Assembly: GCA_963789265.1 (NCBI GenBank) | Contig: CAWBKB010000006.1 | Location: forward strand, 288,001 to 352,000 | Origin: an uncultured delta proteobacterium | GTDB lineage: Bacteria; Desulfobacterota; Desulfomonilia; Desulfomonilales; Desulfomonilaceae | DNA length: 64,000 nucleotides | Direction: 5' to 3' | Shown here: positions 2,882-19,920 of the stretch, piece after piece | Layout: every line of letters begins with the position of its first letter | How positions within the stretch are numbered: the first letter of the stretch is position 1 | Notes under the pieces: model-generated | Databases searched by the model: none | What the model saw: the letters and a program-made list of their open reading frames with translations, nothing else | What the model was told of the DNA's origin: nothing | Program-made: the position numbers and the translations under genes

Positions 2882-4528
2882 TCACAACTGCTCTCTAGCG
2901 GCATTCTTCGATTCAAGCCACGAAATGGCTGCGGCATGCAGTCTGCCGACGAGCCGCGAAGACCTCGCCAGATCATGGAAACGAACTAGCCATTTCGCCG
3001 GAATCCTCTTGAGCAGCCTGCTGCCGGAACCACTGATCAAGTTGCGGTATCGAATCCGCTCGAGATGTGCTTCCAGTTTTTTTTGGTTCTGCACATTCCT
3101 GTCCCGGATCCTCTCCCAGTTCAGCCCGTTCAGCTCGTCGTAAACAAACTGTTCTCTCTCAAATACGGATGTTCGAACGCTTCGCAAGTTAGTGAGGCCA
3201 TACCGCTCCGGGTATTGAAACATCAAGGACTGTGGCTCCAGGAGAAAACGCTGGGGCAAGAATGCCGCCATATCCGAATCAATGTAGCGCTCCACTAGCC
3301 GTTTGAAACTCTCAACATCCTCTTCCGATTCATGAGGAGCGTTGTAGATCAGGTGGATGTAATTTTTGATCCCAAAACCTATTGCTTGGTCGATCAAATC
3401 ATGCATTTTCTCTGCGTCAAACCGCTTTCCCAGTAACCGAACCGTGGGAGTATGAGCCGATTCGACCCCCCAGAAGAGGCTGAAGCATCCGGCGTCTTTT
3501 GCTTTCTTCAGCAACTCTTGGCTGAACCCGTTTACCTTTGCATAGGCATACCAACGAATGGCGGGAAGCTCGGCCGCAAGTCGATCGCAAACCTCGGCAC
3601 AGCGGGTGGGATTGCCGTTAATCGAAGCATCTGCAAACTGGAACGTAACCGTTCGGTATTTCCGGGCAAGTTGAGATACCTCTGAAACGATCTTGTCGGC
3701 TGACTTGCAATCAAACGCGTCAACCAGGCGTCCCGTACAGAAACTGCACTGCGAGGGGCACCCCTTGGACATTCGATATGGAAGAAAGAGAGTCTTCTCT
3801 CCGGTCAAGGGATGGTCGTAGCGATACGAGTCCAGAGAAAGGCCCTCAAAGTCGGGAACGCGCTCTTCTTCGGCCGGCAGTCTGGACTGCGGCCTCTGAA
3901 TAAGCTTTCCTTCCTCGAAATAGATAGCGCCGGGTATTTCCGCGCGGCAGACCTTCATTCTTCCGTGGTGCAGCCTGTGGAGCATGAGCAGGGGGACCTC
4001 TCCGCTCCCTTTAATCCAGTAGTCGGCCGCTCCGTAAGGAACAAAGGATTCCGCGGGCTTGATCGTGATAAAGGGTCCGCCGAAGACGATTACAGCCTCC
4101 CGGTTAAGTCGGCGGATATAATGTGCGATTAGAAGTGAGGCCCAGAACTGATGATAAGCGACTATGGAGAAGGCGTACATTCCCGCGTCGGGAATCAAGC
4201 GGCCCGCATACTTTTCGGTGAAGGCTCCGAGCCCTTCCTGCAAGGCGAATCCTTGAAGAGAATTGAAGAATTCGTCCTGGGAAAACGTCCTTTCAGGGTT
4301 GTGGTAGTCGATGTCATCATTATCGCCAAAGAGATATTCGATGAGAAAATCGCATTGGATCACCGGCACAGAGTGCTCTTTCAGAAAGGCGTAAACTACC
4401 GACATGCCGTAAGGCATAAATTTGGTCTTTAGGTATCGTTTACTTATAGCTGGAGGATGAACGAGAACCACTCGCGGATCGGCGGGATAGCGAAGCGTTA
4501 CTGATGCATCACTCGAACCTGATTTCAT
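2882..4528 (-). CDS. B12-binding-domain radical SAM protein
   Basis: CPSQCSFC (CxxxCxxC) motif; N-terminal B12-binding-like region (IVFGGP, GSGEVPL); GC-x-WGVES motif. Confidence 0.85.
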   Translation of the reverse strand: MKSGSSDASVTLRYPADPRVVLVHPPAISKRYLKTKFMPYGMSVVYAFLKEHSVPVIQCDFLIEYLFGDNDDIDYHNPERTFSQDEFFNSLQGFALQEGLGAFTEKYAGRLIPDAGMYAFSIVAYHQFWASLLIAHYIRRLNREAVIVFGGPFITIKPAESFVPYGAADYWIKGSGEVPLLMLHRLHHGRMKVCRAEIPGAIYFEEGKLIQRPQSRLPAEEERVPDFEGLSLDSYRYDHPLTGEKTLFLPYRMSKGCPSQCSFCTGRLVDAFDCKSADKIVSEVSQLARKYRTVTFQFADASINGNPTRCAEVCDRLAAELPAIRWYAYAKVNGFSQELLKKAKDAGCFSLFWGVESAHTPTVRLLGKRFDAEKMHDLIDQAIGFGIKNYIHLIYNAPHESEEDVESFKRLVERYIDSDMAAFLPQRFLLEPQSLMFQYPERYGLTNLRSVRTSVFEREQFVYDELNGLNWERIRDRNVQNQKKLEAHLERIRYRNLISGSGSRLLKRIPAKWLVRFHDLARSSRLVGRLHAAAISWLESKNAAREQL

Positions 4529-11753: not shown

Positions 11754-13682
11754 ATGGGAAGGACAGTCGCGGAAAAAATTATCGAAGCCCATCTCGTAAA
11801 AGGAAAACTTGAGGCCGGTTCCGAAATAGCTATCAAAATTGACCACACTCTCACTCAAGACGCGACAGGGACCATGGCTTTCCTTGAATTTACGGCCATG
11901 GAGGTTCCCAGGGTTAAGACGGAAGTTTCAGTCAGCTACGTGGATCACAATCTTCTGCAATCCGATTTCAAGAATGCCGACGATCACCGTTTCCTGAGAA
12001 CTGCCGCTGCAAAGTATGGGGTGGTGTTCAGCAGACCCGGCAACGGAGTGTCCCATCAGGTGCATCTGGAGCGCTTCAGCGTGCCGGGTAAGACACTTTT
12101 GGGCGCGGACAGCCACACCACCACCAATGCCGGCAGTTCCATGCTGGCCATTGGGGCTGGGGGGTTGGACGTTGCCATGGCCATGGCCGGACATCCTTTT
12201 TACCTATCCATGCCCAAGATTGTCGGTGTGCGGCTCACCGGCTCCCTTCAACCGTGGGTGTCGGCAATGGATGTGATCCTTGAAATGTTGCGCAGGCTAA
12301 CGGTGAAGGGCGGCCTGGGCAAAATCTTCGAATACTTCGGGCCGGGCGTCGAGAACCTGTCCACAACCGACCGGGCCACCATAGGCAACATGGGCGCGGA
12401 GTTGGGCGCGACAACCAGCATGTTTCCTTCAGATAGGCGCACACGGGAATTCCTCGAAAGTCAGGGTCGCGGCCACGTCTGGACGGAGATCGTGGCGGAT
12501 CCGGATGCCAGGTACAGCGAAATTATCGAACTTGACCTTGACGGGCTCGAACCTTTGATCGCCTGTCCCAGTTCCCCGGGAAACGTGAAGAAGGTTTCAG
12601 AAGTGGAAGGCATCGAAGTGTCCCAGGTGATCATCGGTTCCTCGGTGAATTCATCTTTCCGAAACTTCATGGTAGTGGCCAAGGCGGTGGCGGGGCGGCA
12701 CTGCCACCCCGACTTGAGCTTTGATATCAATCCTGGCAGTAGTCAGGTCCTTCTGAACGTGGCAGAGGCAGGTGGGGTTGCCGACCTAATTTTGAGCGGA
12801 GCGCGTATTCACCAGTCCGGTTGCCTGGGCTGCATCGGTATGGGGCAGGCTCCCGCTACCGGAGCAGTCTCACTGAGAACTTTTCCGAGGAACTTCCCCG
12901 GCCGGAGCGGGACCTTTCCTGATGAGGTTTACCTCTGCTCGCCTCAGACGGCGGTTGCCGCGGCACTTCGGGGAAAAATCAGCGACCCGAGAGCCCTTGG
13001 AGACTATCCAAAGGTTTCCGAGCCGATCAAATACTCGCTTAATGATGAAAATCTCGTGCAACCCGCATCGGATCCCGCTGCGGTGGAAATCCTCATGGGG
13101 CCGAATATCAAGCCTTTCCCCAAGTTCGACAGACTGGAAGAGACCATCGAAGGCCCCATAGTCATCAAAGTGGGGAACAACATCAGCACGGATGAAATCA
13201 TGCCCGCGGGGAGCAAGGTCCTGCCCTTGCGGAGCAACGTAGAGGCCATCAGCGAATTTGTGTTCAACAACATTGATCCGGATTTTCCTCGCCGTGCCGG
13301 GGCCGCAAAGTTGGGTTTCGTGCTGGGGGGTGATAATTACGGTCAGGGCTCGTCAAGGGAGCACGCGGCCATCGCTCCGCGCTTCCTGGGCATCCGTGCC
13401 AAGCTGGCCAAGAGCTTTGCAAGGATTCACAAGGCCAACCTCATCAACTTCGGAATACTCCCGCTGACATTTGCCGAGCCGAACGACTACGAAACGCTTT
13501 CCGCGGACGATGTAATCCGCCTCGACGGAGTACGAACCGCTGTAGAGCAGGGGAAAGAGGAGTTGATTGCGGAAGTGGCGCAGTCCCAAAGAAAGATTAT
13601 TTTGAGGCTGAACGTGACTGAACGTGAGAGAAAGATTTTGGTTGCAGGCGGGCTGATAAACCTGGCCGGACGAGGTCGTTGA
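11754..13682 (+). CDS. Aconitate hydratase (short, about 640-aa type)
   Basis: TQDATG, DHN, GADSHT, CLGCIG, RTFPRNF and YGQGSSREHA motifs. Confidence 0.9.
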   Translation: MGRTVAEKIIEAHLVKGKLEAGSEIAIKIDHTLTQDATGTMAFLEFTAMEVPRVKTEVSVSYVDHNLLQSDFKNADDHRFLRTAAAKYGVVFSRPGNGVSHQVHLERFSVPGKTLLGADSHTTTNAGSSMLAIGAGGLDVAMAMAGHPFYLSMPKIVGVRLTGSLQPWVSAMDVILEMLRRLTVKGGLGKIFEYFGPGVENLSTTDRATIGNMGAELGATTSMFPSDRRTREFLESQGRGHVWTEIVADPDARYSEIIELDLDGLEPLIACPSSPGNVKKVSEVEGIEVSQVIIGSSVNSSFRNFMVVAKAVAGRHCHPDLSFDINPGSSQVLLNVAEAGGVADLILSGARIHQSGCLGCIGMGQAPATGAVSLRTFPRNFPGRSGTFPDEVYLCSPQTAVAAALRGKISDPRALGDYPKVSEPIKYSLNDENLVQPASDPAAVEILMGPNIKPFPKFDRLEETIEGPIVIKVGNNISTDEIMPAGSKVLPLRSNVEAISEFVFNNIDPDFPRRAGAAKLGFVLGGDNYGQGSSREHAAIAPRFLGIRAKLAKSFARIHKANLINFGILPLTFAEPNDYETLSADDVIRLDGVRTAVEQGKEELIAEVAQSQRKIILRLNVTERERKILVAGGLINLAGRGR

Positions 13683-13764
13683 AGAGCGACTAGTAGTGAC
13701 TCTTGCCTTCAAGGAAGTGACACTGTGTTTTTAGAGGACAATCTCGCCCTGGAGCGACCTCCGG

Positions 13765-13991
13765 TCGTCATCCCCGCGAACACGGGCATACATTGTAGGG
13801 GCACCTCTCGTGGGTGCCCCCAAAAGGGCTGGCACAAGCCCCATTTGACCTATACACACCCGCACAACTGAGGTCGCCACGTCGAGACGCGGGCCTCGGG
13901 ATTCTCGTGTGCGTGCGAATGACACCCAACCACAGATTGCGCAGATGACGTAGATAATGAATCTGGATTCCCGCGCACGTTGGAATGACGT
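13765..13991. repeat. Cluster of degenerate REP-like palindromes
   Basis: CGTCATCCCCGCGAA..., GTAGGGGCACCTCTCGTGGGTGCCCC and GGATTCCCGCGCACGTTGGAATGACG between convergent genes. Confidence 0.55.
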
Positions 13992-14113
13992 CGGGCTGAT
14001 GCCCCTTGCGTCGGAAAGATGCGTCCCAGCATCCCTCGAGGGCGAATGTCCCCCTTCTTCATGATGGATCAGCGTAAATGCGTACGAGGGGGAGGCCGGT
14101 CCGCGCCGTCCTT

Positions 14114-14617
14114 CTACGAGGGTTGACGGGTGGGACCTTTCTCCATTTTCTGCCTGACAAAAATCTCATCAGCGTCTTGTTTCTTGAGAGGGACGAGATT
14201 TTTTCCGTGGTGGAAGAGCAGATGCTTAGGATCGGTCTCCTTCACAATAATTCGTACCACCGGCCCTGAATCCCAGTACAACGTCAGAAGCGGCGGCGCA
14301 TACGAGAAGCCACCGGCCCCCGCAGCGATCCATTTCTGCGCTTCATCTCCCCGATAGGTCGAGCTGAAGGTCCCGTTATTGCTAAACTTCAGTTTCATGA
14401 GACGGCTGGTCGCGGGCACGTCCTGACCTTTAATGACGCGTGAAGTCAGAACCCATGTACCTGCCAGACGGGACGTGTCAGCCGTCTTTTCGGTGGATCC
14501 TGTTCGACTGCTGCAGGATACGAGGAGACAACTAAAGAGGAGTAGGCCCAGGATTGGCGTGTAACAGTGGAAGAAGCGCGGCCTAATGTTTTGCGCAAAA
14601 CGGTAGAGTGTCAACAT
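14114..14617 (-). CDS. Lipocalin-like lipoprotein
   Basis: Lipobox LVSC; LAGTW motif followed by a beta-rich LKFSNNGTF segment. Start approximate. Confidence 0.6.
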   Translation of the reverse strand: MLTLYRFAQNIRPRFFHCYTPILGLLLFSCLLVSCSSRTGSTEKTADTSRLAGTWVLTSRVIKGQDVPATSRLMKLKFSNNGTFSSTYRGDEAQKWIAAGAGGFSYAPPLLTLYWDSGPVVRIIVKETDPKHLLFHHGKNLVPLKKQDADEIFVRQKMEKGPTRQPS

Positions 14618-14631
14618 TTTACCCTGTAAAT

Positions 14632-14671
14632 GGACAAGGCGATAGTGCCCCGAAGGCTCATCGCCTTGTCC
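14632..14671 (-). terminator. Hairpin downstream of the Ser-rich peptide gene
   Basis: 12-bp perfect stem GGACAAGGCGAT / ATCGCCTTGTCC; U-tract is weak. Confidence 0.5.
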
Positions 14672-14717
14672 ATTCAACTCTGCGAACTGAACGCGCGGTC
14701 GCTAATCGACCAGAATA

Positions 14718-15128
14718 TTAGTACCAGCCGCTGGATGAGCTGCTCGCCGGCCAGTAACCACCGCTGCTGCTTGAAGAAGAAGCATAGTAGTTATAGCCGC
14801 CGCTGCTACTGCTGCTGGAACAGCCGTAGTAATTGTAACCACCGCTGCTACTGCTGCTGCTCGAAGCGGGCGCGCAGCAAGTCCGGACACAGCAACAACC
14901 GCTGCTGCTGGACGAGCACGCCGGCCAATAACCGCTGCTGGATGAACTTGCCGGATAGTAACCACTGCTGCTGGATGAACTTGCCGGATAGTAGCCGCTG
15001 CTGGATGAACAACAGCCATTGGCTCCACCCCACGAAGCATAGGGGGCCCAAGCATAGAAGCCTATAGCGTATGTTGCAAACAACATAACCATACCGACAA
15101 CTGCAAGCGCTACTGCAAATCTTTTCAT
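14718..15128 (-). CDS. Secreted poly-Ser/Gly-Tyr/Cys repeat peptide (136 aa)
   Basis: AGGAGG RBS, MKRFAVALAVVGMVMLFATYAIG signal peptide, eight S4-7-G runs encoded by mixed TCN/AGY codons. Confidence 0.8.
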   Translation of the reverse strand: MKRFAVALAVVGMVMLFATYAIGFYAWAPYASWGGANGCCSSSSGYYPASSSSSSGYYPASSSSSGYWPACSSSSSGCCCVRTCCAPASSSSSSSGGYNYYGCSSSSSSGGYNYYASSSSSSGGYWPASSSSSGWY

Positions 15129-15446
15129 CGAAACAAATACCTCCTCATGGAATAAAAGTCTCATTCTTCTGCTCTCGGCATCGAGAACAGTTTTTCCCTC
15201 TTGAAATAGTGAGACAAGCTATAACCTAATCGCTATCACGGACAGAAGCCTTTGTCAATCTTTATTTGTTTTGCCGACTCCTGTTGTCCCACTCATTCCG
15301 GACCGCAAGCCCGAAATGCCCCTTGACTCACCTCGGCTGTCTGTTAGGATTCCCTTAAATTCGATCCTTGTCAAGGAATTTTTCAAATGGCACAAAATTG
15401 CAGGCCCGCAAACACATCGGCGACAATAGGGCATTCCCCGGCTACC

Positions 15447-17497
15447 ATGCCTGAACTTTCCCGGACATGCTGGCTAAAAACTACTTTTGTAACAACGATA
15501 TGCGCGATTGTCATTATTATGTTTATGCTGAAAATATCCCTACTCTCTGTTATGGCAGGAGAAAACAATATAAATGACGAGAGTCCGGCGAGCCCGCAGG
15601 GAGGGCCTCAGAGAGTGACTGAACTACACACCGCCGGCTCGGAAGTCGACCGCCTTCTCGACAACTTCAAACCTGCAACCGCGCCGGCAGCGGAGCCTCG
15701 GGACGCGTCCCCGCGACGGAACCGGATCGTTATTTGAAAACAAGATACGCACAGTTGGAGAGTTGTTGGCGGCACGCGACATCGACAAGGCCAGAGAGAT
15801 CGTGAGGCAAACGATTTATGACTGTGAATCGGGGGAAGGAAACCCCCGCGACTGCTCCCAGTGGTTGGAATTTCTGCGAGGCCTCAACTCGATCCTTGCC
15901 AAGCCGGTCAAACAGAAGATGGTCAAGAATTCCTTGGGCATGGCCCTAGTCCGCATACCGGCAGGGGAATATATGATGGGTAGCCTCAAGCGGGAAATGG
16001 ATTGGCTGAGGTTGACCTTCAAGAAGACCTGGAGAGAGGGGCACAAGCAGTGGTTTCAGGACGAACTCCCCCTCCATCCTGTGCGAATCACTCGGCCCTT
16101 CTATATGGGCGCCACCGATGTCACAGTAGGACAGTTTCGGCAGTTCGTCAAAGACACGAACTACAAGACCGAGGCCGAAAAGGGCGATGGTGGAATGATA
16201 TACAGCACGAAGGAAGAGCGTTGGGTGGCTAGGAAGTCCATGAAATGGGACTCGGTGCCCTGGCCCATCGGGGACGATCAGCCGGTTGTCTTTGTTTCAT
16301 GGAATGACGCTCAGGCTTTTTGCCGCTGGTTGAGCCGTAAAGAAAACCGGACCTATCGTCTGCCTACCGAGGCGGAATGGGAGATGGCATGCCGAGGCGG
16401 TTCGGTTCTGGACGCGTTATCCTTGGGGGGATCGCCTACCCGGGGACCGAGACTCTAATTTCGGAGACGGCAACTCGAAATTGCCTGAAAGCATGACCAC
16501 CGTAAACGACGGTTACAAATACGTTTCACCGGTTCGAGCCTTTCCTCCAAATGGATACGGCCTTTACGACATGGCTGGAAATGTAATGCAATGGGTCCAG
16601 GACTGGTACGAGAGAAACTACTATGAAAATTCGCCGCTGGAAGACCCGAAGGGACCCGGCACGGGCACCGGCAGAGTTAACAAAGGAGGGAACTGGTATT
16701 CCAGCCCGGCCGATTGCAGGTGCGCATTCCGCGGCTTTTCCGGTCCGAGCATGAGCTTCTGGAATTTGGGCTTTCGAGTGGTGATGGAGGCGCCTAAACC
16801 GGAACAGGGAATTTTGGCGTCCAAAGCAAGACGTTCAGGGGAATCGAAGGTCAAAGAGTCTTCTGATAGCATGTTTCCTCCAAGTGATGAGGATGGGGTG
16901 CGTCTGTTTCGCCAAGCCATGTTCGCTGCTGAGCAACAACAGTGGGATCAGGCGACCGAGGATCTCGAAAAGGCGTTAAAAGTCTATGAGAAACGGGAAG
17001 ATCTCAAGTGGATAGCCAGAGTGAAAGCCACATTAGCCGGCATTTATGCTGAACGGAACAGAAAATATAAAAGCAAAGAACTCTATATCCAGGCCCTTGC
17101 GGAGTTCCGAAAAATGGGGGACTCCGCCAACTCCCGTATCATCCTTGCGCGTCTGGAGGATCTCGAAACATCACCTGGAGTGAAAGTGGTCCAGGTAAAA
17201 AAGGGGGGAATCGCCGCTAAAGCAGGGATTGTACCCGGAGACATCATAATTGAGTATGGTGGGGAAACCGGCTTTCGAGTCATAGGGTTCAAGAAACTCG
17301 TCGATGAGTACTCACGGTCTGGCCAGGTAACGCTGAGCGTCATGAATAATGGTGAGATTACCACCACGGTGGTCTCAGGCGGTCCTTTAGGAGTAGCCCT
17401 TGAAGATATCAAGCGGCCCCCGCGTCCGGCACGACCTGCCGAGGAGGCACGACCTCGTGGTAGGCGGAGACCCAGGCCGGCAAGAGCAAGACGCTGA
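15447..17497 (+). CDS. Membrane-anchored SUMF1/FGE-sulfatase-domain + TPR + PDZ protein (two apparent frameshifts, near 15720 and 16405)
   Basis: Three ORF-track pieces join. FGE motifs IPAGEYMMGS, PVVFVSWNDA, RLPTEAEWE, (RYPWG after the shift), NGYGLYDMAGNV, LGFR; TPR-like helices; PDZ GVKVVQVKKGGIAAKAGIVPGDII. Start approximate. Confidence 0.75.
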
Positions 17498-17886: not shown

Positions 17887-19335
17887 TTATGAGCCTACGG
17901 CGCCTCGAATCTTTTGTATCAGTTGGCTGGTCGATATCCCGTCGATGTGTTTGACGAATTCCACCCTTCCTCCTCTTGCTTTCACGATAGCTTCGCCGAC
18001 CACCTCCTTGCCTCTCCAGTCTTCACCTTTAACCAGGATGTCGGGACGCAGCTCCTTGATGAGATTTTCGGGGGTATCTTCTTCGAAGACCACGACAAAG
18101 TCCACGAAGCTCAGGGCCGAAACCAGTTCCACTCGATCGGCTTGAGCAATGATGGGGCGGCCGGGTCCCTTGATGCGAGAGACCGATCGGTCGGAATTGA
18201 TGCCGACCACCATGATATCTCCCATAGCGGAAGCCTTGCGCAGGATTTCAAGATGTCCCGCGTGAAACAGGTCAAAGCATCCATTCGTGAAGACAATCTT
18301 GTGCCCCTGAATTCTGTGGTTGCCGAGTTCCGCGGCGATATCTAGCAAAGCAACCACCTTGGTGCTCGAAGGCTTCTGTCTGAGAGCGTCGATCATCTCC
18401 TCAAGACTCGCGGAAGCAGCCCCAAAACGGGCCACCACGATGGACGCGGCTAGGTTGGCCAGATTGATAGCCTCCTCAATGGACAGGCCGTTTGCCACTG
18501 CCAGCCCGAGCGCTGAAATCACAGTGTCACCTGCGCCGGTAACATCCACGATTTCCACCGGTTTCACGGGAAAATCCTGTGCCTTATGCCCGGTAACGAG
18601 CGTAATTCCGTCTCTTCCCCGCGTAATAATTAGGGCTTCCGCTTCCGTCTGGTCCAGAAGGATGCGGGCTGCCTCCACAAGCGTTTCCTTATTTCTGATT
18701 TCGATTCCTGAGGCCAGAGAGGCTTCCCGCAGATTGGGGGTAATATAAGTCGCCCCACGGTACTTCCTGAAATCCATCCCCTTGGGATCCACCAAACTGG
18801 GGATCCTGTTTGAGCGGGCTGACTCCAACAGAGCCTGGAGGAGGTTTGGGGTGAGAAAACCTTTGCCGTAATCGGAAATGATGGCTGCCTTGACCTGAGG
18901 CATGACCGATTTGACCTCCTCAAGAACCACCCGTTCTATTTCAGCGGGGATCTCGGCAATTCTTTCTTCGTCAATGCGCACAATCTGTTGGTTTCTGGCG
19001 ACCACGCGAGTCTTTATGGTAGTTGGGCGAGAAGGATCGTCTTTCAACCAGAAACTCTCTACAGCCATCTCTTCGCAATTCTTTTTGAACCAACTCCCGG
19101 GGTTGTCCTTACCCACCGTCGCGAACAGTGCCACAGTGCCCCCCATGGTAACTAGGTTCTTAACAACGTTCCCCGCGCCTCCCAGTCTGCGGAGTCGGTC
19201 ACGGGCCACCACTACAGGCACCGGTGATTCAGGGGATATGCGCTCGACTTCGCCGACGACGTATTCGTCAACCATCACATCGCCGGCTACCAGAATAGGT
19301 GCCGGTTTCAATGATCTAAGCAGGTTTTCGTTCAC
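17887..19335 (-). CDS. hldE: Bifunctional heptose-7-phosphate kinase / heptose-1-phosphate adenylyltransferase
   Basis: PfkB kinase domain (GGAGNV, SDYGKG, DVTGAGDT) plus adenylyltransferase domain (FTNGCFDLFHAGH, LVKGEDW). GTG start after GGAGG. Confidence 0.95.
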   Translation of the reverse strand: MNENLLRSLKPAPILVAGDVMVDEYVVGEVERISPESPVPVVVARDRLRRLGGAGNVVKNLVTMGGTVALFATVGKDNPGSWFKKNCEEMAVESFWLKDDPSRPTTIKTRVVARNQQIVRIDEERIAEIPAEIERVVLEEVKSVMPQVKAAIISDYGKGFLTPNLLQALLESARSNRIPSLVDPKGMDFRKYRGATYITPNLREASLASGIEIRNKETLVEAARILLDQTEAEALIITRGRDGITLVTGHKAQDFPVKPVEIVDVTGAGDTVISALGLAVANGLSIEEAINLANLAASIVVARFGAASASLEEMIDALRQKPSSTKVVALLDIAAELGNHRIQGHKIVFTNGCFDLFHAGHLEILRKASAMGDIMVVGINSDRSVSRIKGPGRPIIAQADRVELVSALSFVDFVVVFEEDTPENLIKELRPDILVKGEDWRGKEVVGEAIVKARGGRVEFVKHIDGISTSQLIQKIRGAVGS

Positions 19336-19920
19336 TTGAGATCCTCCGGAATTCAAATGGCCGCGCCGCGGTTTTATCCGCCTTTTGCGTTCTCCTTAGA
19401 AGCGGACGGAGAACGAAGAGAACCTCTTCTCAAAAGGCCCTATCACTTCATAGCCTGTGCTAAAGGGGTTTTGCAACAGCTCGATGAACTTTTCGGCCCG
19501 CGCATACTATAAATTACATGCACAAATATTGACAACATCAAGTTTATAATTGCTTTTTATGCACTTTCTTGTTAGACGAATGGCCGGGAAGGAACATAGT
19601 AGGTACAACAATGCACGACCTCTCGTTTAGATCTCATCTATCAGCTTCCAATCGTGCCGAACAAAGCCCGGGCCGGTCACTTGATCGAATCAATGTGCCG
19701 GCCCGGCTCCACTTACCTGCGAGCCTTTTAGAGTCTTGCTCGGGACTCAGGTACCAGCAGCCGTCTTTGCAATGGGCTACTCGAGGAATCATGTACCTTT
19801 TCAAAGCGCCCTCCTTTCCGTTTGAGGAAACATGTTGATTGATACACCTATCTGTACTTAGTCAACGTCCGCTCATCTTGTCAAGGTCGCGGCCATCCGC
19901 CGGAACGGAACGAAGAGAAC

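Follow-up and report, generated by a model that had tools for sequence, protein, structure and literature searches.

What is encoded on the minus strand at positions 14,718 to 15,128 of the DNA studied here, where an open reading frame (ORF) spells out runs of serine punctuated by tyrosine, tryptophan and cysteine? The window, by which we mean the whole stretch analysed, comprises 64,000 nucleotides from an uncultured delta proteobacterium of the family Desulfomonilaceae (contig CAWBKB010000006.1 of assembly GCA_963789265.1, positions 288,001 to 352,000), and coordinates given without a locus handle refer to it. We conclude that the ORF is a genuine gene specific to the Desulfomonilaceae, and that its product, which belongs to no described family, is almost certainly a real exported protein. 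As to function, our preferred reading, to which we give a probability of about 40%, is that the peptide is an abundant, disordered matrix or coat protein of the cell envelope. The gene and its predicted product are made up as follows.

14718..15128, minus strand: peptide coding sequence, with ATG at 15128-15126 and stop at 14720-14718; 136 codons, giving a 136-residue precursor.
15060..15128, minus strand: predicted signal peptide, residues 1-23, with MKR, a hydrophobic core and small residues at -3/-1 of the predicted cleavage site.
14721..15059, minus strand: predicted mature chain, 113 residues, with an FYAWAPY..WG head, eight Ser4-7-Gly units with Tyr/Trp/Cys-Pro-Ala linkers, and a C-terminal Ser5-Gly-Trp-Tyr.

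The original prediction, made from the DNA letters of the window, was right in calling this frame coding and in its coordinates: they match an ORF exactly (14718-15128, minus strand), and the frame is open across the family. In a survey of the whole 6.06-Mb genome for ORFs running from Met to stop over at least 70 residues (14,274 ORFs), it is the sole Ser-rich one with very few charged residues. Taken from a longer upstream ATG it has 31% Ser and 4% charged residues, compared with 11-22% charged residues in the other 14 of the 15 top-ranking Ser-rich ORFs, which look like shadow frames. Tandem Repeats Finder detects one short array in the gene (30 bp, 3.5 copies, 81% match), and the repetition therefore lies mainly at the level of the protein. 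The Ser codons, 29 AGY and 16 TCN, are intermixed inside most of the runs. Among 41 distinct coding sequences of the family, Ala26, Ala28, Pro29 and Gly34 are invariant, each being encoded by four codons, and the C-terminal Ser block keeps the codon pattern AGY-AGY-TCN-TCN-AGY, with synonymous changes within each class. To judge by these sequence patterns, purifying selection is acting on the peptide frame. Selection at the protein level had been proposed on the strength of the mixed Ser codons; the synonymous changes at invariant residues, and the finding of only one short DNA array, bear this out.

The repeat also gives rise to two long open frames that overlap the peptide gene.

14630-15067, plus strand: shadow ORF of 145 residues, in another frame.
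14702-15055, minus strand: shadow ORF of 117 residues, in another frame.

We reject both as the true reading, because only the peptide frame accounts for the codon pattern and for the conservation of the two termini. Gene callers could pick either of them wrongly. The peptide gene itself is frameshifted in four of 54 copies (L004/L036, L041 and L045), all from metagenome-assembled genomes (MAGs). The likely cause is low-complexity DNA in long-read assemblies, with sequencing error and decay both possible. The copy in genome G001 has a second half that is readable in another frame.

How widely is the gene distributed? When 60 relatives were searched in six frames, 34 of the 36 Desulfomonilaceae genomes among them showed the peptide in frame at E ≤ 1.1e-4. 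The other 24 genomes, from the sister family, had nothing beyond what chance would give: their matches are short, reach E 0.0045 at best, and many are interrupted by stops. In-frame primary orthologues, as distinct from the paralogues described below, are present in 33/36 and 0/24 of these genomes, respectively. Absence of any frame-conserved homologue from relatives had been named in advance as evidence against the gene; such homologues are abundant. A scan of 185,579 species genomes found 39 loci of the peptide family, all of them titled as Desulfomonilaceae, Desulfomonile, 'Syntrophaceae' or delta-proteobacterial MAGs. A large protein collection has 22 relatives at E ≤ 0.001, called 'hypothetical protein' where they are named at all, and a profile search of 1.84 billion representatives returned only 21 clusters at the same threshold, with an N-terminal W-A-P-[YF] motif in nearly all of the clusters inspected. 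Pfam-A and NCBIfam gave no profile match to the peptide at E ≤ 10, the best score in an ESM Atlas search was 0.80, below the lead level of 0.9, and a search of the available literature turned up nothing in print about it. The source genome yielded no paralogue of the peptide, its sole other match having E 0.235. The hosts are environmentally widespread sulfate reducers and dehalogenators, among which Desulfomonile tiedjei, whose cells have a characteristic 'collar', is cultivable.

The precursor begins with MKR, followed by some 15-20 hydrophobic residues. Position 21 is Ala, Gly or Ser in 40 of the 41 distinct coding sequences, and position 23 is Gly or Ala in 40 of the 41; in divergent copies, motifs of the A-x-A type stand directly before an [FY]-x-[AG]-W-A-P-[YF] motif. 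The Sec-type N-terminus recognised earlier thus holds up on inspection of the sequence, with its basic n-region, hydrophobic core and small residues at -3/-1. Signal peptidase I probably cleaves after residue 23, leaving FYAWAPY..WG as the head of the mature chain. Alternatively, the segment may serve as an uncleaved signal anchor, since AlphaFold2 (AF2) models residues 2-26 as a single helix.

The composition of the mature chain (113 residues if cut after residue 23, the length given in the original prediction) is S45 Y15 G15 A11 C9 P6 W5, with Ser making up about 40% and Arg82 the sole charged residue; the protein offers trypsin almost nothing to cut. In 23 of 40 distinct family proteins the mature part has no charged residue at all. 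Eight runs of four to seven serines, each closed by G or GG, are set in units with the layout [aromatic or Cys]-Pro-Ala-Ser5-Gly-[Tyr/Trp], and cysteines occur along the chain as CC, C, CCC, CC and C. The same grammar runs through the 307 Ser runs of the 40 distinct proteins: x-P-A precedes 186 of them and W-P-A 79, Gly plus Tyr or Trp comes after most, and C-[VAMT]-P-A is found before many. Residues 1-34 are the best-conserved part of the family. The first two and the last two units are conserved in position, and the centre is variable: many members have Y-x-Y-C-C-x-P-A there, others Y-Y-Y-P-Q-A or sequences rich in Gly, Tyr and Trp. The primary orthologues compared end in Ser5-Gly-Trp-Phe/Tyr, to which two of them (L013 and L014) add a trailing Arg. 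Members have up to nine cysteines, in odd as well as even numbers, and 8/40 distinct proteins have none.

In the AF2 model, built from a 40-sequence alignment, the sole confident part is the helix at residues 2-26, with a predicted local distance difference test (pLDDT) score of about 95. Residues 33-136 have pLDDT below 50 and no secondary structure, and the repeat region scores about 30-40. Going by this model, the mature chain is probably disordered. It would then be an extreme case of an exported, wholly disordered bacterial protein, about 40% Ser, with aromatic punctuation and mostly charge-free, yet with termini that are invariant throughout the family; to our knowledge, such exported proteins have barely been studied in bacteria.

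The DNA on either side of the gene carries the following signals.

15140-15146, minus strand: Shine-Dalgarno sequence GAGGAGG, 11 nt before the ATG.
15169..15190, minus strand: stem-loop in the 5' untranslated region, seven consensus pairs by RNAalifold on 25 loci; also flagged on the plus strand.
15229..15258, minus strand: promoter-like box, TTGACA and TG-n-TAGCGAT separated by 17 nt, some 100 nt before the ATG, with an A-rich tract ahead of it.
14629..14675, minus strand: 3' hairpin with an 18-bp stem, between the peptide gene and the lipoprotein gene that follows it.

The core AGGAGGT is invariant in 25 aligned upstream regions, and the ribosome-binding site reads GAGGAGGT in most copies. 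In the 5' stem, compensatory changes affect three of the seven pairs, each in one or more of the sequences from the 25 loci. The promoter-like box and its A-rich tract are conserved in an alignment of 41 upstream regions, and from this conservation we infer that the box is a promoter. The downstream hairpin noted in the original prediction is real enough as a folding signal: the 126-nt stretch that holds it has z = -4.2 against shuffles, and strong hairpins lie 40-60 nt past the stop in all 12 of the 12 orthologous loci folded, several of them followed by U tracts. Taken together, these signals appear to resemble those of very highly expressed envelope genes. Searched against Rfam, the interval 13500-16000 gave two sub-threshold matches only, one to a viral sisRNA and the other to an archaeal snoRNA; both fall well short of the gathering score, and we take them as chance.

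Two further genes flank the primary form of the peptide gene.

14114..14617, minus strand: lipoprotein gene, directly downstream on the same strand, with lipobox L-V-S-C (Cys35).
15387..17497, plus strand: gene for a periplasmic protein with a formylglycine-generating enzyme (FGE) fold, TPR and PDZ, divergent from the peptide gene and reading in three frames here (15387-15737, ~15625-16458 and 16481-17497).

The lipobox Cys is present in most orthologues of the lipoprotein. AF2 models the mature part as a small β-barrel of nine strands with pLDDT 82.5, for which the best Foldseek matches are Bacteroides lipocalin-like proteins (4iab, 4gzv and 4i95; E 3e-4 to 7e-4, TM 0.52-0.60). The structural match is moderate, and on this model the gene would encode a lipocalin-like lipoprotein.

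The FGE/TPR/PDZ protein is seen whole in locus L035, where it has 710 residues, with an N-terminal signal or anchor, PF03781, TPR, PDZ and an Arg-rich tail; Pfam matches are to PF03781 (E 6e-58), TPR_12 and PDZ. Compared with the same-genus locus L036, the gene in the source genome has single-base gaps near 15712 and 15722 and an extra base near 16404, and it could be either a pseudogene or the product of an assembly error. The PDZ domain is HtrA-like, with an invariant G-G-x-L-G loop at its end (in an alignment from which the L020 row was left out on account of its stop codons). Like canonical formylglycine-generating enzymes, the protein has the PF03781 fold, and its closest solved relatives are true enzymes of this class (6muj and 2q17, E ~2e-42). 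It differs from them in carrying TPR, PDZ and an Arg-rich tail and, in an alignment to 6muj, 2q17 and 1y1e, in lacking both catalytic cysteines of the C-H-x-S-Y-C motif, with a three-residue gap at the site. With both cysteines missing, we reject canonical FGE activity for this neighbour.

Do the three genes form a unit? In public MAGs the lipoprotein gene adjoins the peptide gene in 36/36 primary loci, and the N-terminal half of the FGE gene adjoins it in 35/36, the exception being a contig end. The adjacency holds also in ten loci that lack the aconitase/MBL flank. Of the 36 family genomes, 33 have the lipoprotein, always as one copy, and in every one of them it is on the contig of the peptide at a distance of about 0.2-0.7 kb. 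These 33 genomes also have a full-length FGE/TPR/PDZ orthologue, which is fragmented in G004 and G035 and unbroken in the other 31. All three genes are absent from G017 (73% complete) and G029 (97% complete). Genome G007 (91% complete) likewise has neither partner gene and no primary peptide, its sole peptide copy being of the paralogue type and lying in a different context. The FGE-C/TPR/PDZ profile is matched over its full length only in Desulfomonilaceae among 301 genomes across the phylum, with only the FGE part matched elsewhere. This co-distribution is suggestive of a module, which is present also in the complete genome G033. The original prediction had seen neither this grouping of three genes nor how widely the peptide gene occurs in the family.

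Some relatives have extra, more divergent copies of the peptide gene. We scanned seven distinct contexts of such paralogues; L057 and L059, which resemble L056 and L058 respectively, were not scanned.

L042: MarR and ArsP_1 upstream, OEP and HlyD_D23 downstream.
L062 (G007): catalase upstream, OEP and HlyD_D23 downstream.
L050 (same locus as L060): extracytoplasmic function (ECF) sigma factor, zf-HC2 anti-sigma factor and PF13801 'heavy-metal resistance' protein.
L053: PF13801, ArsR and two ArsP_1 genes.
L056: ArsR and ArsP_1.
L058: ankyrin-repeat proteins and Yip1.
L061: ArsR/MarR-like regulator and ATP synthase genes.

Genes for metal(loid) handling, efflux or envelope stress lie beside the paralogue in five of the seven, which suggests a role for the family in protecting the envelope under metal(loid) or related stress. 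Locus L062 has, upstream, another ORF for a secreted Ser/Gly-rich protein, of 165 residues. Ankyrin-repeat proteins occur near two different paralogues, in L050 (3298-3867, signal-bearing) and in L058 (3663-5457).

How might such a protein work? On our preferred reading, the peptide would be exported and lose its signal, and the disordered chain would then remain, in high abundance, within the cell envelope and form a cohesive matrix or coat there. Cohesion would come from Tyr and Trp as stickers, with the Ser runs as flexible spacers capable of hydrogen bonding; those runs that follow W/Y-P-A would plausibly be O-glycosylated. In silk sericin, the FG-nucleoporin domains, plant extensins and Gly/Tyr-rich wall proteins, low-charge Ser/Gly-rich spacers combined with aromatic stickers give cohesive gels or cross-linked matrices. 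All of these are eukaryotic and unrelated in sequence, and the analogy is one of composition only, with Y-x-Y occurring in extensins too. The lipocalin-like lipoprotein and the FGE/TPR/PDZ protein may anchor or organise the peptide, with the conserved head and the aromatic C-terminus serving as docking points; HtrA-type PDZ domains bind ligands of this sort, with an aromatic residue at the C-terminus. A complex prediction for TPR-PDZ (A3 residues 130-318) with the last 42 residues of the peptide gave a score of 0.07 and a mark of 0.32, without controls, and speaks neither for nor against binding. Of the functions offered in the original prediction, the aromatic-sticker/Ser-spacer matrix and the glycosylated protein are compatible with the low pLDDT of residues 33-136 (below 50), the low charge and the x-P-A-Ser units; the amyloid and the multicore precursor fare badly, for reasons given below.

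Several observations weigh against this reading. Low pLDDT does not prove disorder. The cysteines are not conserved, being absent from 8/40 distinct proteins, and there is therefore no general thiol chemistry in the family. No glycosyltransferase gene is adjacent to the peptide gene. The region is largely syntenic by descent, and adjacency alone is thus weak evidence for a functional link. Only three genomes show the joint absence of the three genes, and two of those are incomplete; it may represent one to three events, and kin are not independent. The FGE/TPR/PDZ gene is in three frames in the source genome while the peptide gene is intact; if the damage is real, the peptide is not strictly dependent on this neighbour. 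Finally, two of the seven paralogue contexts have no stress genes.

Could the Ser runs instead be the whole point of the molecule, as carriers of sugars? The Trp/Tyr-Pro-Ala-Ser-run units would then be sequons for a periplasmic O-glycosyltransferase of the PglL (or GT-C) type, and the peptide a small mucin-like glycoprotein whose function resides in its glycans. The optimised PglL recognition motif, WPAAASAP, starts with W-P-A and continues as a stretch of small residues with the acceptor Ser a few residues past the Pro, and an upstream Pro is described as favouring glycosylation (PMC4850263). The W-P-A (79/307) and x-P-A (186/307) that precede the Ser runs of the family recall this motif, but the likeness is short, being limited to the three-letter prefix. 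A second parallel is provided by streptococci, for which O-glycosylation of extracytoplasmic Ser/Thr-rich disordered regions is described (PMC12041528). These too are exported, Ser-rich, structureless segments, but they are tails of larger, folded, membrane-associated proteins of Gram-positive organisms, whereas in the peptide family the repeat makes up the entire mature protein, is strictly punctuated by aromatic residues and Pro-Ala, and runs between termini that are conserved. The source genome has three matches to Wzy_C (PF04932), two of them above the cut-off, which could supply the enzyme. These matches are ambiguous, however, since Wzy_C also marks ordinary O-antigen ligases and is matched in 9 of 14 control genomes, and the conserved three-gene module contains no glycosyltransferase. 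We consider it unlikely, at something like one chance in a handful, that the peptide is primarily a glycan carrier.

A second alternative is that the peptide coats or caps inorganic particles in the periplasm, such as elemental sulfur, metal sulfides or metalloid precipitates, in the manner of the proteins that envelop sulfur globules in purple sulfur bacteria. The proteins SgpA/B/C/D of Allochromatium vinosum are described as small, Sec-exported, repetitive, structural proteins of the periplasm with regularly spaced prolines, likened to keratins and plant cell-wall proteins (PMC10386293). The peptide family resembles these proteins in having a Sec signal, repeats and spaced prolines, and by analogy they are perhaps the closest functional counterpart that can be named. 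Members at L046, L048 and L049 are Gly/Tyr/Trp-rich rather than Cys-rich, and the paralogues adjoin genes for ArsR/ArsP_1, PF13801 and CusB/HlyD-type efflux, both of which would suit a particle coat. The comparison with the globule proteins is one of description, however, and the peptide family differs in its ~40% Ser, its near absence of charge and its gene neighbours; Pfam and NCBIfam detect no sequence relation to any named family, and the neighbours of the primary copy are not metal genes. We know of no sulfur storage in the sulfate-reducing hosts, and of no particles in Desulfomonilaceae. A particle coat is accordingly quite doubtful.

At its most ambitious, this idea can be joined to the other findings as follows. 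A charge-free sticker-and-spacer protein would condense in the periplasm or on the cell surface and cap precipitates of sulfur, metal sulfide or metalloid; its primary copy would be organised by a dedicated lipocalin-like lipoprotein and by a scaffold, the FGE-fold/TPR/PDZ protein, gripping the aromatic C-terminus; and extra copies would be switched on under metal stress by regulators of the ArsR, MarR and ECF types. We regard this as a long shot. If true, it would add a new class of bacterial envelope material, a functional counterpart of the sulfur-globule proteins. Two equally family-specific partner genes, together with paralogues in metal and efflux loci, make for testable hypotheses on envelope materials, periplasmic condensates, O-glycosylation and mineral capping.

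The remaining alternatives survive less well. The FGE-fold neighbour raises the possibility that the peptide is its substrate. The Cys of C-x-P-A-S, which recalls the sulfatase motif C-x-P-x-R, would become formylglycine by oxidation and serve in cross-linking, and the PDZ domain would hold the C-terminus. The FGE gene is divergent from the peptide gene in 35/36 primary loci, its FGE domain is closest to true enzymes (6muj and 2q17, E ~2e-42), and C-[VAMT]-P-A stands ahead of many Ser runs. This is very unlikely, however, given that the neighbour lacks both catalytic cysteines of C-H-x-S-Y-C and that 8/40 distinct family members are Cys-free; moreover, the hosts are strict anaerobes and the copper FGE is O2-dependent. 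A functional amyloid or fibre subunit, as proposed earlier, would likewise be repetitive, aromatic-rich, uncharged and exported, with strong expression signals, but the AF2 model has no β-structure, not a single strand being predicted, neither Pfam nor NCBIfam gives a match to an amyloid family, and no dedicated secretion or nucleator genes are adjacent. We think this a poor prospect. That the peptide is a multicore precursor of a ribosomally synthesised and post-translationally modified peptide (RiPP), lanthipeptide- or ranthipeptide-like, could be argued from the abundant Ser and Cys and the repeated units, and a multicore precursor was among the proposals of the original prediction. This is scarcely credible: the peptide has a Sec-type signal instead of a leader, modifiable core cysteines are not conserved (8/40 members have none), genes of the LanB/C/M, radical-SAM and protease kinds are all missing from the conserved module, and the nearest radical-SAM ORF (2882-4528) lies at a distance of 10 kb, beyond housekeeping genes. 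The same prediction had correctly remarked that no RiPP maturase is adjacent, the neighbours being the lipoprotein, the FGE/TPR/PDZ protein and housekeeping genes.

These housekeeping genes encode aconitase, an MBL-fold protein, thiolase, aspartate-semialdehyde dehydrogenase, HldE, ThiD/ThiN and MoaA. The ~400 bp between the aconitase and lipoprotein genes (13700-14110) contain no convincing ORF and have sub-threshold Rfam matches only. Between the divergent peptide and FGE-fold genes, inverted elements CCTTGAC ... GTCAAGG are conserved (15300-15360, both strands), and on the plus strand TTGACT-16-TAGGAT at 15323-15350 forms a promoter-like site facing the FGE-fold gene. Beyond that gene lies one further feature.

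17887-19356, minus strand: bifunctional HldE-like gene (PfkB plus cytidylyltransferase; ADP-heptose synthesis).

To link this gene to glycosylation would be pure speculation. It stays beside the FGE-fold gene in most loci, including several in which the other flank is rearranged.

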